From: a virus
Taxonomy: Duplodnaviria; Heunggongvirae; Uroviricota; Caudoviricetes
Length of the DNA stretch: 64,000 bases
IMG/VR virus record: IMGVR_UViG_3300029702_000002
Direction: 5' to 3' (one strand)
The translations under genes were made by a program, and so were the position numbers. The notes beneath the pieces are model-generated. The model made no database searches. It was not told the origin of the DNA and saw only the letters and a program-made list of their open reading frames with translations. This document shows, piece after piece, positions 1 to 5,101 of this stretch. The stretch's first letter is position 1, and each line of letters begins with the position of its first letter.

Positions 1-908
1 TTACGTGATACCTCCTGGCTTATGCCTAATGCTGGGAAGTAACTACGCGCAGTACGGCGCAAATCTCGGGGTGTAAATGGCTCAAGCTCCATCAGTTCTG
101 GTCGTTCCAGAATACGACGTAATGCCTGGGCTATTGCCACTTTAGACATAGGAAGGTCTTTCCCGATTTTTTTATTCGAAGGCACGAGCCACTGGCTGTC
201 TTTACCATATTCGAACAACTCTTCAATACAAGTGCGCATTAATGAGCTTAAAGGCAGAGAATGCTCACGGGCAGATTTGTTCCTCTTGCCTTGATTCCAA
301 ACCCCACGCTTAAGATTGAACTCACTTTTTTTAGCCCGCAGTACTTCGTCAGGTCGTCTTGCGGATACAAGACATAGCCTGGCCGCCCATTTTGTACCAG
401 CACACACATTGAAGTAGTCCCATATATTCCAGAACACCCATACCTCTGCGTCGGTCAGCTTCCGCTCGCGAGGTGTGGGCTTTGCGCCACCGGCAACTTT
501 GTTAAGTGACATATCGTTTAACGGTGACACGTCTATCATCCCCTGGAAGGCGCACCAGCTAAGGAACTGCTTCATCAGAGAGAAAACGCGGCGGCCCATA
601 ACAATTTTGCCATCCAGTATTAGTGGGTTGACCAGTTGGTTCACCATGAACCTATTAATGTCACTTACTTTTACATCGGCAATGTGCGGCAAAACATGTA
701 TCAAAATACAATGAACAGCGATCTCTGGCCGACGTCTGGTTATCAGCAGAGATAAGCGAGTGAATAACATGAATGCGTCCGAGAATCTCATGTCATTGCT
801 GACCTGGGAGATCATAACGGCCTGCATTTGAGATGCTCTTTCGAGATACTCTATCGCCTCTTTTGAGGTGTTCTCCGCAGCGCGTGCTCTGTCAAAGCTA
901 TTTTTCAT
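1..908 (-). CDS. int: Tyrosine integrase (phage integrase family), partial; C-terminus outside window
   Basis: Minus-strand ORF from ATG at 908 with no stop in window; translation ends ...FTPRDLRRTARSYFPALGISQEV matching integrase box II region, with an upstream ARRPDEV...HSLPLS box I-like region. Confidence 0.6.
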   Translation of the reverse strand, partial: MKNSFDRARAAENTSKEAIEYLERASQMQAVMISQVSNDMRFSDAFMLFTRLSLLITRRRPEIAVHCILIHVLPHIADVKVSDINRFMVNQLVNPLILDGKIVMGRRVFSLMKQFLSWCAFQGMIDVSPLNDMSLNKVAGGAKPTPRERKLTDAEVWVFWNIWDYFNVCAGTKWAARLCLVSARRPDEVLRAKKSEFNLKRGVWNQGKRNKSAREHSLPLSSLMRTCIEELFEYGKDSQWLVPSNKKIGKDLPMSKVAIAQALRRILERPELMELEPFTPRDLRRTARSYFPALGISQEVSR

Positions 909-1041: not shown

Positions 1042-1158
1042 GGGCATTTTTTATAAAATCTGTGATTCTTCTCAGGATAAATTATCTAAACTAAAAATTG
1101 TGTTTTGTGTTGGCATCTGCTTGAATAGACGCATGTTTATTCAGATATGGAATAATCA

Positions 1159-1695
1159 GTGAACAACCAAATTCATTGGGACTACCCATTCTCAGAAGAA
1201 TTCGGCAGTGGGATGGTACACAGACAATTCACTGTGGGAAGCACTATTTATGCCGTTGGGTTTGAACAAATATTGACGATGGATGATTTCACACGTAAGG
1301 GAGTTGATATCCTAAATGTACATCCAACATTCCGGTTTCCTCTGAGTGGTGTATGGGGAGTGATTTTTGACGAAATTGACCCTGTAGAAATGGATTTCAA
1401 AGGATTTCGGCATATCCAACATCAAGGCTTGGCAGGTGGTCAAGTGCTTTTGAATGTTGCAAGTATAATCTTTGACCATTATACTGTTTGTAACGCAGGA
1501 GCTTATGTCTTCTCCGCCGCAGTCGACCATCAGCATTTACGCAGAACTGACTTGGTAGACATTTACTGTAAGATACTGGGTCTAAATGGAAAACGTAAAA
1601 GTAGATTGTTCGCCAATGGTTTTCCTGGATGGGAGGCATACTGTGATGTACCAACAGGAGGAAGAGGCTATGTCGTCACGACTGAAAGTTATTAA
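1159..1695 (+). CDS. Hypothetical protein (178 aa, GTG start)
   Basis: ORF with stop overlapping the next gene start; no recognisable motif. Confidence 0.45.
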   Translation: MNNQIHWDYPFSEEFGSGMVHRQFTVGSTIYAVGFEQILTMDDFTRKGVDILNVHPTFRFPLSGVWGVIFDEIDPVEMDFKGFRHIQHQGLAGGQVLLNVASIIFDHYTVCNAGAYVFSAAVDHQHLRRTDLVDIYCKILGLNGKRKSRLFANGFPGWEAYCDVPTGGRGYVVTTESY

Positions 1696-1897
1696 TTATT
1701 ACCCCACCTCTGCAGAACGTTTGAGCCTTGAAATGGGCGAAAGACTACAGAAAGCTGCTGGTCAGGATTTAAAGAACAAGTTGGGTTCAGGGGAAATTAA
1801 ACTGATTAACGGTAAATATGTAGGTGAAAGCCTGAAAGTTAATAGCACCTCTATGCTAAAAGCGCGGTTGCGTAAAGCGTATATCCCCGCTAAATGA
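1670..1897 (+). CDS. Hypothetical small protein (75 aa)
   Basis: ATG at 1670 preceded by AGGAGGAAGAGG ribosome-binding site; overlaps stop of upstream ORF; followed by hairpin terminator. Confidence 0.45.
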   Translation: MSSRLKVINYYPTSAERLSLEMGERLQKAAGQDLKNKLGSGEIKLINGKYVGESLKVNSTSMLKARLRKAYIPAK

Positions 1898-1926
1898 AAA
1901 GGCCTATATGGGCCTTTTCATTTTTA
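1897..1926. terminator. Bidirectional intrinsic terminator hairpin (AAAAGGCC-TATAT-GGGCCTTTT)
   Basis: GC stem flanked by A-run and T-run between convergent genes. Confidence 0.6.
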
Positions 1927-2169
1927 TAGTGTACTCACCAGCGCCGCAAATTCCGTATACCCCCCAATATGCTCTCCATGTATGAATATCTGAGGTATGG
2001 TATCCACTGGTTTACCAACCAGGTTGCTCAACGTTTCTTTGTTGATCCCCGCAGATGTAATATCTATATACTCATAATCACCGTAGCCATGTCCCTTTAG
2101 TTGCTTCGCCAGCTCGACCGCACGTTTGCAGTATGAGCAGTTATCTCGTCCGTAGATAGTGATCGTCAT
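1924..2169 (-). CDS. Glutaredoxin/NrdH-like redoxin (81 aa)
   Basis: N-terminal CSYC active-site motif (YGRDNCSYCKRA) and glutaredoxin-like length. Confidence 0.7.
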   Translation of the reverse strand: MTITIYGRDNCSYCKRAVELAKQLKGHGYGDYEYIDITSAGINKETLSNLVGKPVDTIPQIFIHGEHIGGYTEFAALVSTL

Positions 2170-2342: not shown

Positions 2343-3251
2343 ATGATTGGTAAGTTGTCTGATTCTTTGATTGAAAATAAATACAACGAATTTAGAGAAG
2401 AAATATCTTTACTTTTTGACTATTTAAATCAGATAAATGATACAACAAAGAAAAATATAAAACGTCTTCTTAAAGAAGTGGAGTATGCACAAAATCCAGA
2501 TACTATTATTAATATTAATGAAACTATTAAGATTAAGTGTGGCACAACGTTAGCTCGCCATTTATGTTCAAACCCATATACAGGTTCAACATTAGAGATA
2601 GGTAACAGCGCCATTGATTTAGAAGAAAAGATAAGATTGTGTAATACTTTGAAAAATAAACAATATCAGTGGGTTATTACTGAAGCCTATGAGTTACTGG
2701 AAGACTATATTGAGGCAATATATGTCTATACTGTATGTGTTCGAAATGATTTATGGTCCTCAAGTGATTTTGGTAAGGTTGAAGATGATGAAATTGGGAA
2801 AAGGGAAGTTTATTACAGATTATTAAAAGCAAAAAGTAACCCATCGAAAAAAATAACTAAAATTTTCAGAAATAAAATACCTGGCTTCAAAGAGATAGAA
2901 ACAAACAACAAGATTGGCAAAAACTATCGCTTTAACATCAAGCTAATTGAACTACTAAGACATACAATAGTACACAATAGTGGACGATTCAATGATACAG
3001 AAAAATTTATAAATAAGGTTTTAGATGAATCTGAAATAAACGGTAAGAAAAGAGTTATTGGAGAAAGAGCTGTTAGAAGTTACATTACTAAAGTGCAAGA
3101 AGATGATATTGTGATGCTCTTAGAAAGACCATCTGAAATTTTAGGTTCTTTTGGTGGGTATTTTAACAGAGCAAAATTTTTACTAAGTGATATTTTAGAA
3201 TACTCACTAATCATTAAAGAAGAACTAAAATCATATCTAGGCAATCATTAA
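2343..3251 (+). CDS. AT-rich hypothetical protein with HEPN-like Rx4H motif (LRHTIVHNSG); candidate abortive-infection protein
   Basis: 302-aa ORF with markedly lower GC than neighbours; R-x4-H motif in C-terminal half; own terminator. Confidence 0.5.
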   Translation: MIGKLSDSLIENKYNEFREEISLLFDYLNQINDTTKKNIKRLLKEVEYAQNPDTIININETIKIKCGTTLARHLCSNPYTGSTLEIGNSAIDLEEKIRLCNTLKNKQYQWVITEAYELLEDYIEAIYVYTVCVRNDLWSSSDFGKVEDDEIGKREVYYRLLKAKSNPSKKITKIFRNKIPGFKEIETNNKIGKNYRFNIKLIELLRHTIVHNSGRFNDTEKFINKVLDESEINGKKRVIGERAVRSYITKVQEDDIVMLLERPSEILGSFGGYFNRAKFLLSDILEYSLIIKEELKSYLGNH

Positions 3252-3882: not shown

Positions 3883-4342
3883 AATTCGGCACTGCCAGTA
3901 TTTATTACTCAACAGTGCCAATCGCGACGGTTTAGTTTCTGCCAGGAAACGCACCGCTACTTGCACTTTTCGTTAGTGCCAGACGCTTTCGACTTCGCTC
4001 AATAGTAGAAGGCAAAATCTTTAAGTAGATGATGTTTCTGAGGACTGCACCTACTTTGTAATTTATACAATGTGATGTATGGAATCATTTGTTGTGAAAA
4101 CAGGCACCAATGGCAACAGTGGTTAAACCTACACAACTATCCTGTCTTCACAACGTTGAGGCCACTACTCCGATTGAATGTTTGCCCAACATGTTACATA
4201 TCAACGCTCGCCGGTATCTCTGTGAATAGAACCTTAGAATTGATAAAAATGTAATGGCCTCAACGTTGTGTGCTGGCTAACCATACCAGCCGGGCTACGT
4301 CGCCGCTTTTTAACCCAGTATAAACGACATAATTGAACAAAA

Positions 4343-4952: not shown

Positions 4953-5101
4953 TTTCTAACCTTTGTTTCATGAACTACCCGATACACACGCTTTCCGATG
5001 CACAGTGTTTTGGTTTTAAGTTCCTGCTTAATTAAATCACGACAGATGCCGAAGCCGATAAGGAAGCCACCCATAAAAGCTAATGAGATGTATGGAATCA
5101 T
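4949..5101 (-). CDS. Small hydrophobic protein (50 aa, MIPYISLAFMGGFLIGFGIC...)
   Basis: Below ORF-track size cut-off; ATG overlaps upstream stop (ATGA) and own stop overlaps downstream start; AGGAG site 8 nt upstream. Confidence 0.4.
   Translation of the reverse strand: MIPYISLAFMGGFLIGFGICRDLIKQELKTKTLCIGKRVYRVVHETKVRK

Follow-up and report, generated by a model that had tools for sequence, protein, structure and literature searches.

A mobile, translationally coupled gene pair in the cargo slot of an SSU5-type phage-plasmid: a possible toxin-antidote-type cassette with a predicted GNAT-like fold in its large protein

In the GNAT-RHH toxin-antitoxin systems (TacAT, AtaRT, KacAT and ItaRT), an RHH antitoxin is encoded upstream of its toxin. 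The toxins TacT, AtaT and KacT use a GNAT-like fold, which is shared by tRNA-acetylating toxins, and in GNAT proteins, whose fold has a beta4-alpha3-beta5-alpha4-beta6 core, a pyrophosphate-binding loop, Q/R-x-x-G-x-G/A, between beta4 and alpha3 binds acetyl-CoA. The usual charge pattern of toxin-antitoxin pairs is a basic toxin with an acidic antitoxin, and many such pairs are abortive-infection systems. In rnlAB/lsoAB and toxSAS the toxin gene comes first, followed by a small antitoxin gene to which it is translationally coupled. Here we describe a gene pair, L and S, that resembles these toxin-first modules in gene order and coupling, with no sequence or fold relationship to them, and that reverses the GNAT-RHH arrangement, the large gene being first and its small partner downstream. 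Our preferred reading, held tentatively and with somewhat less than even confidence, is that L-S is a new toxin-antidote-type cassette in which L is the effector and S its neutraliser.

The pair lies in a window of 64,000 nt, the whole stretch of DNA analysed here, whose identity is an SSU5-type phage-plasmid. Gene L (positions 1159–1695, plus strand), the proposed effector or toxin, starts with GTG and encodes 178 aa; gene S (1670–1897, plus strand), the proposed neutralising partner, starts with ATG and encodes 75 aa, and the two overlap by 26 nt in different frames (1670–1695). The pair is flanked by a tyrosine recombinase/integrase (3–908, minus strand, running past the window edge; Pfam PF00589, phrog_1) and, after S, by the convergent gene of a GrxA-type glutaredoxin, grxA (1924–2169, minus strand; PF00462). 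An AGGAGG Shine-Dalgarno sequence (1656–1661, plus strand) stands 8 nt before the S start. Between the S stop codon (1895–1897) and that of grxA, an inverted repeat at 1892–1923 contains a bidirectional hairpin terminator (1893–1922), AAUGAAAAGGCCU-AUAU-GGGCCUUUUCAUU, common to S on the plus strand and grxA on the minus strand; it folds as RNA on both strands (-21.8 and -18.6 kcal/mol; z-scores -6.6 and -4.6), with U-rich stretches on both sides. The initial annotation had described just this anatomy, namely two ORFs of these lengths with a 26-nt overlap, a strong ribosome-binding site for the second gene, a bidirectional terminator, and integrase and glutaredoxin neighbours, and each element was found as described. 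A simple terminator scan did not list the hairpin between S and grxA, and an Rfam search over 850–2400 returned only sub-threshold chance matches; at other loci, analogous GC-rich hairpins follow S.

L and S are real genes and not chance ORFs, because both are annotated as CDSs in RefSeq in identical plasmids, both have homologues at 46–99% identity, and pairwise dN/dS is low (0.05–0.12 for L and 0.12–0.21 for S); purifying selection acts on both, which counts for the toxin-antidote reading. The GTG start of L has a weak Shine-Dalgarno sequence, and is supported by the conservation of the N-terminus among homologues (M/V-N-N-x-I-x-W-x-x-P-F) and by their GTG, ATG or TTG codons at the matching position, which have better Shine-Dalgarno sequences (e.g. 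AAGGAGG in Yersinia). We discarded a short ORF upstream that ends in GTGA where L starts, as it is not conserved in C. freundii on our reading of the alignment, and the upstream alignment of loci holds no conserved small ORF. S begins at the ATG of a conserved M-S-S; the upstream in-frame ATGs chosen by some gene callers are not conserved. Its Shine-Dalgarno sequence falls within the codons of a conserved G-G-R-G at the C-terminus of L, and GGAGG or GGGAGG is kept at this position in all loci, distant ones included.

About 32 nt before the L start is a conserved TGnTTGAAT motif, whose TTGAAT occurs at equal distance in nearly all of 14 aligned upstream regions, including that of the distant locus L020. 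We regard it as a putative promoter element of the cassette, the corresponding region (1098–1126, plus strand) comprising TTGTGT (1098–1103), a 17-nt spacer ending in TGc, and TTGAAT (1121–1126). TTGAAT is not a canonical -10 element, having no A at -11, and a simple sigma-70 scan listed no promoter upstream of L. Two other assignments were rejected: in a sigma-54 promoter (TGGCAT...TTGAAT) the spacing would be one nucleotide short and the GG is not conserved in the alignment, and a -35 element at TTGAAT would leave no space for the conserved Shine-Dalgarno sequence.

The family is rare, with 29 representatives among 1.84 billion proteins, all in Enterobacterales, and by comparison with Pfam, PHROG, PADLOC, NCBIfam and PDB sequences it is unnamed; the literature searched on SSU5 toxin-antitoxin pairs, GNAT anti-phage toxins, SSU5 recombinase sites and the protein accessions makes no mention of the pair. 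At every locus that has the C-terminus of L (approximately 40 loci in 10 genera) an intact S-like ORF overlaps it, by 17–35 nt and mostly by 26 nt, behind GGAGG. The pairing still holds at roughly 30% identity, with a partner of 63 aa or one lengthened at its C-terminus by 130 aa. This strict pairing counts for a toxin-antidote reading, at the level of sequence comparison; together with translational coupling it is also typical of any obligate heterocomplex, and so fits a rival explanation that we think unlikely if still worth serious attention, in which L is a non-toxic enzyme or binding protein, S is its substrate, specificity subunit or regulator, and the pair is beneficial cargo. In such a case L might, for example, modify lysines of the basic S, or S might bring L into contact with nucleic acid. 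Rarity and patchiness on this scale, combined with mobility, would however be unusual for a metabolic or housekeeping function.

L is an acidic protein of 20 kDa (pI 5.85) that matched nothing in Pfam, NCBIfam or PADLOC-DB v2.0 (E<=1) or in PHROG. Its family profile gave 0 matches to all PDB sequences at E<=10, 10 distant relatives of L matched no Pfam or NCBIfam family at E<=1, and Pfam and PHROGs gave no match for the distant relatives and long-partner variants. The initial annotation, which recognised no motif, therefore holds as far as sequence families are concerned; it does not extend to structure, where a model of L (pLDDT 83.7, pTM 0.83) and fold searches point to a divergent GNAT-like (acyl-CoA N-acyltransferase-like) alpha/beta fold class. 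The structural matches include TacT, AtaT and KacT, and this predicted likeness in fold to known toxins counts for the toxin-antidote reading. They also include AcrVA5 (rank 41) and other small GNAT-fold proteins, which would suit a phage counter-defence or host-takeover pair, for instance an acetyltransferase that, like AcrVA5, disables an immune protein of the host, as would the setting of the pair within a phage genome, close to early or accessory genes. We nevertheless consider this last explanation highly improbable: the pair has become fixed at chromosomal loci outside phages in Serratia, Dickeya, Erwinia and Pluralibacter, where anti-defence makes little sense, it is missing from about 98% of related phage-plasmids, and no PHROG family matches L or S.

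The resemblance of L to GNAT proteins is uneven at the level of residues. Six polar residues are conserved family-wide (D71, H85, H107, Y136, R169 and Y171), and in our reading of the alignments the stretch A120-A121 ... L132-x-x-I-Y136-x-x-x-L140-G141 resembles GNAT motif B. A glycine-rich segment, G90-[LVI]-x-[GS]-[GS] (G90-L-x-G-G94 in L), precedes helix 94–111 in the close clade. It is not conserved in the distant members P0060, P0069, P0071 and P0072, and residues 84–90, the sole internal segment of L with pLDDT <50, overlap the region expected for the CoA pyrophosphate loop; that this loop is neither conserved in distant members nor confidently modelled counts against the toxin-antidote reading. 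So does the comparison by hhalign of L with two genuine GNATs, encoded next to L in Dickeya and at locus L020, which gave no match (probability <1%), and L has no significant match to a GNAT sequence model. With the acyl-homoserine-lactone synthases LasI, EsaI and TofI, the N-acyl amino acid synthase FeeM, and Naa60, L shares 4–10% identity; against Pfam it matched neither Autoind_synth nor any acetyltransferase family, which speaks against a LuxI-type acyl-homoserine-lactone synthase. Compared with acyl-donor GNATs, the elements of its N-terminal half (hairpin 19–38, two short helices and strand 65–74) come in another order, and the loop before alpha3 has 19 residues, predicted with low confidence.

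S is an 8-kDa, very basic protein (pI 10.1) with the signature K-L-x-[ST]-G-E-x(4)-[NDQ]-G-[RK]. It has no match in Pfam, PHROG, NCBIfam or PADLOC-DB v2.0 (the last at E<=1), and its family profile found only two chance matches among PDB sequences (E 1.4). A low-confidence model (pLDDT 66.8) consists of a long helix (14–40), a beta-hairpin (43–52) and a variable basic tail. L-S is not a member of the GNAT-RHH families, because the partner is downstream, S has no Pfam match, and S is predicted to form a helix and hairpin, in contrast to the ribbon-helix-helix/DUF1778 partner of those systems. The large proteins differ as well: GNAT-RHH toxins are basic, bind tRNA and acetylate aminoacyl-tRNA, whereas L is acidic and lacks both a match to a GNAT sequence model and a family-wide Q/R-x-x-G-x-G/A loop. 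The pI of L argues weakly against a tRNA-binding surface, and its departure from the basic GNAT toxins counts against the toxin-antidote reading; an acidic L beside a highly basic S, the reverse of the usual toxin-antitoxin pattern, favours instead a non-toxic L with a small partner.

The position of the pair within the phage-plasmid bears on its function through the company it keeps. A perfect inverted repeat (1006–1040; CAATGATTCCATAC-ATAGTAG-GTATGGAATCATTG, with 14-bp arms and a 7-bp spacer) precedes a variable cargo segment (1040–2033) that comprises the L-S cassette and the divergent 3' third of grxA. In a BLAST comparison of the window with pECOH89, in which the slot is empty, identity extends to 1039, the sequences are unrelated after it, and identity resumes at 2034; by this comparison the repeat is the left boundary of the variable segment. 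All SSU5-type elements examined keep its arms, irrespective of cargo and even where L-S is lacking, and its spacer varies between elements and is exactly inverted in phage PhiR41_1; the repeat is a candidate lox-like crossover site. Cargo in SSU5-type elements appears to be swapped precisely at this lox-like site beside the recombinase. In some chromosomal copies of the cassette the repeat is also present, 130–153 nt before L; it precedes L-S in Yersinia aldovae, Erwinia aeris and Pluralibacter gergoviae, where its arms have changed symmetrically, and is absent in Dickeya, Serratia and other genera. It is the conserved palindrome upstream of L that was considered as a possible autoregulatory operator, of the kind that type II toxin-antitoxin modules have at their promoters.

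Only about 12 of 509 plasmids with this integrase carry L-S. A YafO-family toxin and its partner fill the slot in pGS04EC-1; a K. pneumoniae plasmid has the same kind of pair together with a colicin E1-type immunity gene, and S. sonnei has a DUF6645 protein there. The YafO cassette of these sister elements occupies the same place, between the integrase-proximal inverted repeat and grxA; like L-S it is an overlapping gene pair, of similar size, that only some elements carry, whereas its proteins are unrelated to L and S, it is in the opposite orientation, and YafO is a recognised toxin family while L and S are unnamed. The 184-aa protein that phage Cyrano carries in this slot was rejected as a distant L homologue (hhalign probability 0.5%). 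That the slot is otherwise empty or filled with toxin-antitoxin, immunity or other unrelated cargo lends the toxin-antidote reading indirect support, by analogy of location, and tells against a non-toxic enzyme.

L-S occurs in phage-plasmids, in prophages (one of them in Yersinia), in a conflict island and at ordinary chromosomal locations. In Serratia it lies between queE and queD, a stable genus-wide locus, in Pluralibacter between glpQ and nrdB, and in Dickeya and Erwinia at further chromosomal sites; the neighbouring genes differ between genera. The cassette is mobile and autonomous, which, on the sequence comparisons, counts for a toxin-antidote pair, and the change of neighbours in every genus speaks against a non-toxic enzyme. 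The stable Serratia locus counts in the other direction, as it would also fit an ordinary cellular function, and several chromosomal neighbours act in the modification of tRNA or of ribosomes (QueE/QueD, a Sua5/YciO/YrdC-family protein and RimJ-like GNATs), as might be expected of a non-toxic L. This neighbourhood signal is probably coincidence, however, because the two GNATs adjacent to L are unrelated to each other and to L; for the same reason we rejected the GNAT genes that immediately precede L in Dickeya and at L020 as a third component of the cassette.

Several contexts would also suit an anti-phage or superinfection-exclusion system without toxicity in the resting state, in which L-S would detect an infecting phage and then either attack it or abort the infection, with S as a sensor or adaptor in place of a simple antidote. 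One prophage copy adjoins an Mrr-type restriction gene, another copy shares its island with NADAR, PRTase-CE, Deam_C and a polyvalent MuF protein, and structural matches in BFVD place L-like domains within large multidomain phage proteins with zeta-toxin, deaminase or ParB domains. SSU5-group phage-plasmids are known to carry diverse defence systems (10.1101/2025.09.12.675607). Against such a system, neither L nor S matches any family of known anti-phage systems in PADLOC-DB v2.0 at E<=1, and most chromosomal contexts of the pair are not defence islands. In mechanism it would overlap with a toxin-antidote pair, in so far as such pairs act by abortive infection, and as a separate explanation we judge it improbable.

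The two genes decay asymmetrically. L has been inactivated six independent times with S intact (once by an IS insertion, three times by a frameshift, once by a nonsense mutation and once by a 450-nt deletion that leaves precisely the Shine-Dalgarno and overlap part in place), and none of the loci examined combines an intact L with a broken S. On gene size alone, all six inactivations would fall in L with a probability of about 0.14, and three of the six came from searches with S, so that the asymmetry is only suggestive of L as effector and S as neutraliser; the same pattern is equally expected if S is useful and L dispensable, as a non-toxic enzyme with a small partner would allow. The converse assignment, S as toxin and L as antitoxin, is excluded, because S persists alone where L is deleted or broken.

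The initial annotation had pointed to a toxin-antitoxin or defence pair. That suggestion gains from the other cargo of the slot, from the behaviour of the pair as a self-contained unit in many contexts, and from the decay of L with S kept; it finds no counterpart in sequence, as neither protein matches a toxin, antitoxin or defence family, and this counts against it. A compact, coupled, bicistronic operon with a patchy, mobile distribution in 10 genera is what would be expected of a type II toxin-antitoxin pair, and L-S may act as a type II-like one. L would probably transfer an acyl group to an essential cellular macromolecule, or bind it tightly, and S would bind and neutralise L through its helix, hairpin and basic tail; S may also bind nucleic acid. 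With L translated from a weak GTG and S from a strong Shine-Dalgarno sequence in the last twelve codons of L, each ribosome finishing L would be delivered to the S start, and S would be in excess over L because of the weak start of the one and the strong coupled start of the other, a logic of expression that counts for the toxin-antidote reading. The pair could then serve the phage-plasmid as a module for addiction or abortive defence.

A more far-reaching version of the toxin-antidote reading, which we consider distinctly unlikely, is that L-S founds a new toxin-antidote family, defined by a GNAT-fold protein without the canonical CoA loop, a new basic helix-hairpin partner, obligatory translational coupling, and transfer between phage-plasmids and chromosomes at a lox-like repeat. 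L may then use a different donor or act by binding, and the repeat beside the tyrosine recombinase would be a point of recombinase-driven cargo exchange, similar in principle to integron or pdif modules.

The L-S family is small and sharply defined, its conserved residues are clear, and two small genes on one plasmid make it an easy experimental target. The apparent cargo exchange at a lox-like site bears on how accessory genes are taken up by SSU5-type phage-plasmids, elements in circulation among clinical E. coli, Klebsiella, Salmonella and Shigella. Should L prove to be a toxin with S as its antidote, the pair would add a toxin-antitoxin or defence family absent from current databases, in which the predicted fold of the large protein is known from tRNA-acetylating toxins, yet the partner, gene order and charge pattern differ; this would widen the range of roles that GNAT-like folds play in genetic conflicts.

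In the window, a tyrosine recombinase/integrase gene (3–908, minus strand, running past the window edge; PF00589, phrog_1) is separated by a 250-nt intergenic region from ORF L (1159–1695, plus strand, 178 aa, GTG start), which overlaps ORF S (1670–1897, plus strand, 75 aa, ATG start) by 26 nt in a different reading frame. A hairpin at 1893–1922 that folds on both strands lies between this two-gene cassette (L-S) and a convergent GrxA-type glutaredoxin gene (grxA, 1924–2169, minus strand). The arrangement described in the initial annotation is thus borne out by the ORF coordinates and by the flanking recombinase and glutaredoxin genes. Its strong second ribosome-binding site corresponds to an AGGAGG at 1656–1661, 8 nt 5′ of the S start and within the C-terminal G-G-R-G codons of L, and its bidirectional terminator to the hairpin, with energies of −21.8 and −18.6 kcal/mol on the two strands (z-scores −6.6 and −4.6) and U-rich flanks. 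The L ribosome-binding site in the window is weak. About 32 nt 5′ of the L start lies the motif TGnTTGAAT (window 1121–1126, and the equivalent place in 13 other loci), neither a canonical −10 nor a canonical −35 element, which is kept in nearly all loci compared, very distant ones included, within surrounding sequence that is not conserved.

Searches of a 5.8-billion-protein collection recovered 43 homologous clusters for L (47–99% identity) and 16 for S, rising to 41 with a profile. The L family is very small, since its profile, run as a full HMM search over 1.84 billion cluster representatives, retrieved only 29 proteins, including one spurious hit. In pairwise comparisons with the copies from Citrobacter, Dickeya, Yersinia and Klebsiella, dN/dS is 0.05–0.12 for L and 0.12–0.21 for S, and comparative evidence indicates that both ORFs, including the first, are real genes. 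The GTG start of L is likewise supported by a conserved N-terminus, other genera having a start codon at the equivalent position with a better Shine-Dalgarno sequence. Across approximately 40 loci (Escherichia, Salmonella, Citrobacter, Klebsiella, Enterobacter, Pluralibacter, Dickeya, Erwinia, Serratia, Yersinia and metagenomic contigs), an S-type ORF follows the L C-terminus in every one examined, with its ATG within the last L codons, 3′ of GGAGG or GGGAGG, and an overlap of 26 nt in most (range 17–35 nt). Pairing holds even where identity to the relatives furthest removed falls to roughly 30%, and by this measure L-S is an obligate, conserved unit. The partner itself varies in length, from 63 aa beside the distant relative P0062 to 186–190 aa in the clade of P0069 (Yersinia enterocolitica, Serratia marcescens, Enterobacter ludwigii; L023 5533–6102 and L024 4616–5185; proteins P0092, P0093 and P0097), where an S-like N-terminus carries a basic 130-aa C-terminal extension with no Pfam or PHROG match. 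Common to S is a signature in which a helix ends in K-L-x-[ST]-G-E, followed by four residues and [NDQ]-G-[RK].

Homology placed neither protein in a family, as no match was found in Pfam, PHROGs, PADLOC-DB, NCBIfam or PDB sequences, family profiles included, and RefSeq annotates both as hypothetical proteins (L, WP_094259625.1; S, WP_032252483.1); structure gave a fold class for L. Structural matches to L in one fold search include many acetyltransferases together with non-enzymes of GNAT-like fold, among them antizyme and the small domain of RNase E. Foldseek of L against the PDB likewise returned GNAT-fold entries only, at E ≥ 0.03 and TM 0.3–0.4, and the top-ranking BFVD entries are N-acetyltransferase domains and phage proteins that are uncharacterised. 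In its C-terminal half, L matches the GNAT core (strand 65–74, helix 94–111, strand 115–119, helix 132–140, strands 159–162 and 170–174), and A120-A121 ... L132-x-x-I-Y136-x-x-x-L140-G141 appears to resemble GNAT motif B. We describe the predicted fold only as divergent GNAT-like, set apart from demonstrated GNAT enzymes, because the order of elements differs in the N-terminal half, loop 75–93 (the expected CoA pyrophosphate site) is long and modelled with low confidence, distant relatives do not share the glycine-rich motif of this loop, and comparison of the L profile with two genuine GNATs gave nothing. The best structural neighbours, AHL synthases, FeeM and Naa60, have the fold alone in common with L. 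Residues F24, P61, G64, F70, H85, V100, H107, A120, A121, L132, Y136, L140, G141 and Y171 are invariant or nearly so across the family, and most members keep D71 and R169. The two proteins contrast in charge, L being acidic (pI 5.85) and S very basic (pI 10.1, with a net charge of about +8.5); a low-confidence model of S (pLDDT 66.8) has a long helix at 14–40, a hairpin at 43–52 and a basic tail.

From the observed anatomy, coupling signals, selection, pairing, mobility, slot context and fold class, we tentatively propose a toxin-antidote-type cassette in which L is the effector and S its neutraliser. L would be a GNAT-like transferase or binder directed at an essential macromolecule, perhaps acting by acyl transfer, and its output would be kept low by the weak GTG start. 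S, which would bind L, would be made in excess because terminating ribosomes pass directly to its strong embedded start, and the terminator would separate the unit from grxA. Such a cassette might serve in plasmid addiction or abortive defence; a dedicated anti-phage role, which overlaps this reading, seems to us rather improbable.

Inspection of the sequences confirmed six independent inactivations of L. In a plasmid of Enterobacter mori the gene is disrupted in association with an IS, three copies are frameshifted (around codons 27, 79 and 128), one has a nonsense codon around position 90, and one, seen in approximately 10 contigs, has a deletion that removes the first 450 nt and keeps exactly the last 78 nt with the S ribosome-binding site. 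S is intact in all six, as it is in all loci found through L. Decay confined to L is the pattern expected if L is the harmful partner, and it hints faintly in that direction, given that the chance of all six events falling in L from gene length alone is ~0.14 and that three of the six were found via searches with S. The reverse assignment, S as a toxin dependent on L, is ruled out by the intact S beside each inactivated L.

The surrounding region is 100% identical to ~108–113-kb circular E. coli plasmids, typed IncFIB and non-mobilizable, and is related to the ~108-kb phages Cyrano, CMS-2020a and PhiR41_1; its genes (CobT-like/AAA, HTH repressor, integrase, grxA, tRNA cluster, DNA ligase, aplA) are the backbone of SSU5-type phage-plasmids. 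A 302-aa backbone gene (2343–3251), also found in the plasmid lacking L-S, matches phrog_35492 (E 3e-211), and its N-terminus weakly matches an "anti-restriction nuclease" PHROG (E 0.003). That sister plasmid, pECOH89, shares 100% identity with the window through position 1039, and identity returns from 2034, inside grxA, which defines a variable segment of 1040–2033. The corresponding slot elsewhere is occupied by a YafO-family toxin and a partner upstream of it (pGS04EC-1), YafO, its partner and a colicin E1-type immunity gene (a K. pneumoniae plasmid), two minus-strand ORFs of 136 and 202 aa that match PHROGs of unknown function (CMS-2020a), a DUF6645 protein (S. sonnei), a 184-aa protein unrelated to L (Cyrano) or other genes (PhiR41_1). 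As L-S is present on only about 12 of the 509 plasmids carrying this integrase, it is a rare cargo of a recognised accessory slot that elsewhere carries addiction and immunity genes. The 3′ third of grxA diverges between cassette-bearing and empty-slot plasmids (window 1924–2033 against L040 3121–3230) and identity resumes only at 2034; cargo exchange therefore took part of grxA along, and the right-hand breakpoint probably arose by homologous recombination inside the gene.

A perfect inverted repeat (1006–1040, CAATGATTCCATAC-ATAGTAG-GTATGGAATCATTG) has its right end at the left edge of the variable segment. Whatever the cargo, every SSU5-type phage-plasmid examined has this repeat, AATGATTCCATAC-N7-GTATGGAATCATT, ~100 nt 5′ of the integrase start (compared loci L038 3611, L039 611, L040 3011, L041 3011, L042 2978 and L043 3011). 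Its 13–14-bp arms are conserved in all of these elements, the 7-bp spacer varies (ATAGTAG, CTTACAA, CTACCAA, CTAAAGA, TTAATAG, TTATATA; in PhiR41_1 CTACTAT, the exact reverse complement of that in the window), and the elements share no related sequence just to the right of it. The repeat resembles a lox-like core or crossover site of the adjacent tyrosine recombinase, at which cargo would be exchanged. Some chromosomal or prophage copies of L-S with no integrase nearby have a related palindrome 130–153 nt 5′ of L (Yersinia aldovae, L008 5863–5889; Erwinia aeris, L029 4862–4888; Pluralibacter gergoviae, L028 4872–4903), with symmetric arm changes (GATTCAATAC/GTATTGAAT and GATCCCATAC/GTATGGGATC). 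The palindrome therefore travels with both the phage-plasmid backbone and the cassette; a recombination scar, an operator and an insulator hairpin are candidates for what it represents upstream of L. Between the repeat and the integrase, ~30 nt 5′ of its start codon, is a LexA-box-like CTGTATAAGTAAACAG (CTGT-N8-ACAG, 938–953). Its conservation in Cyrano, C. freundii, K. oxytoca, K. pneumoniae and pGS04EC-1 suggests that the recombinase is under SOS control. The arm 14-mer ATGATTCCATACAT has two further exact copies in the window (4075–4088 and 5088–5101, both minus strand), one near the tRNA cluster and the other where a small ORF (M-I-P-Y...) has its start codon; in 64 kb, only about 0.1 exact occurrences of a 10-mer core would be expected, and these copies may be additional half-sites for the same DNA-binding protein.

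Beyond phage-plasmids, L-S lies in a Yersinia aldovae prophage region adjoining Mrr and antiterminator Q genes, in a Yersinia enterocolitica island (long-partner clade) with Deam_C, DUF6911, NADAR, PRTase-CE and a giant polyvalent LPD/MuF protein, and, in Dickeya, Erwinia, Pluralibacter (glpQ / yfaE-nrdB) and a Serratia-like group (T1SS / KGG stress genes), with ordinary genes on either side. L-S is distributed in the manner of a small, autonomous module of the selfish or conflict type, and the chromosomal copies make a role in counter-defence most improbable. In the Serratia genomes and contigs sampled (L044–L057, L014–L016), the chromosomal position of the cassette is fixed, with queE (radical SAM) on one side, queD (PTPS) on the other, and L starting 25 nt 3′ of queE. 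An Erwinia copy (L011) adjoins a Sua5/YciO/YrdC-family gene, and a Dickeya copy (L006) and the copy at L020 adjoin RimJ-like GNATs; this repeated closeness to genes that modify tRNA or ribosomes may be coincidental. Such neighbours, the stable Serratia locus and the pairing of an acidic L with a basic S would suit a non-toxic enzyme and its partner, the main rival to a toxin-antidote cassette, but the rarity, mobility and slot context of L-S count against it and we consider it unlikely.

Among known systems, GNAT-RHH type II toxin-antitoxin modules come closest, but L-S resembles them in outline only and does not belong to them: its partner is downstream and not ribbon-helix-helix, while L is acidic, matches no GNAT model and lacks a CoA loop conserved across the family. 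PADLOC has no model for either protein, and a literature search found no mention of them or of the cargo slot. L-S is a new, uncharacterised two-gene family of toxin-antitoxin-like architecture with a putative GNAT-like effector, within a general category that is familiar.
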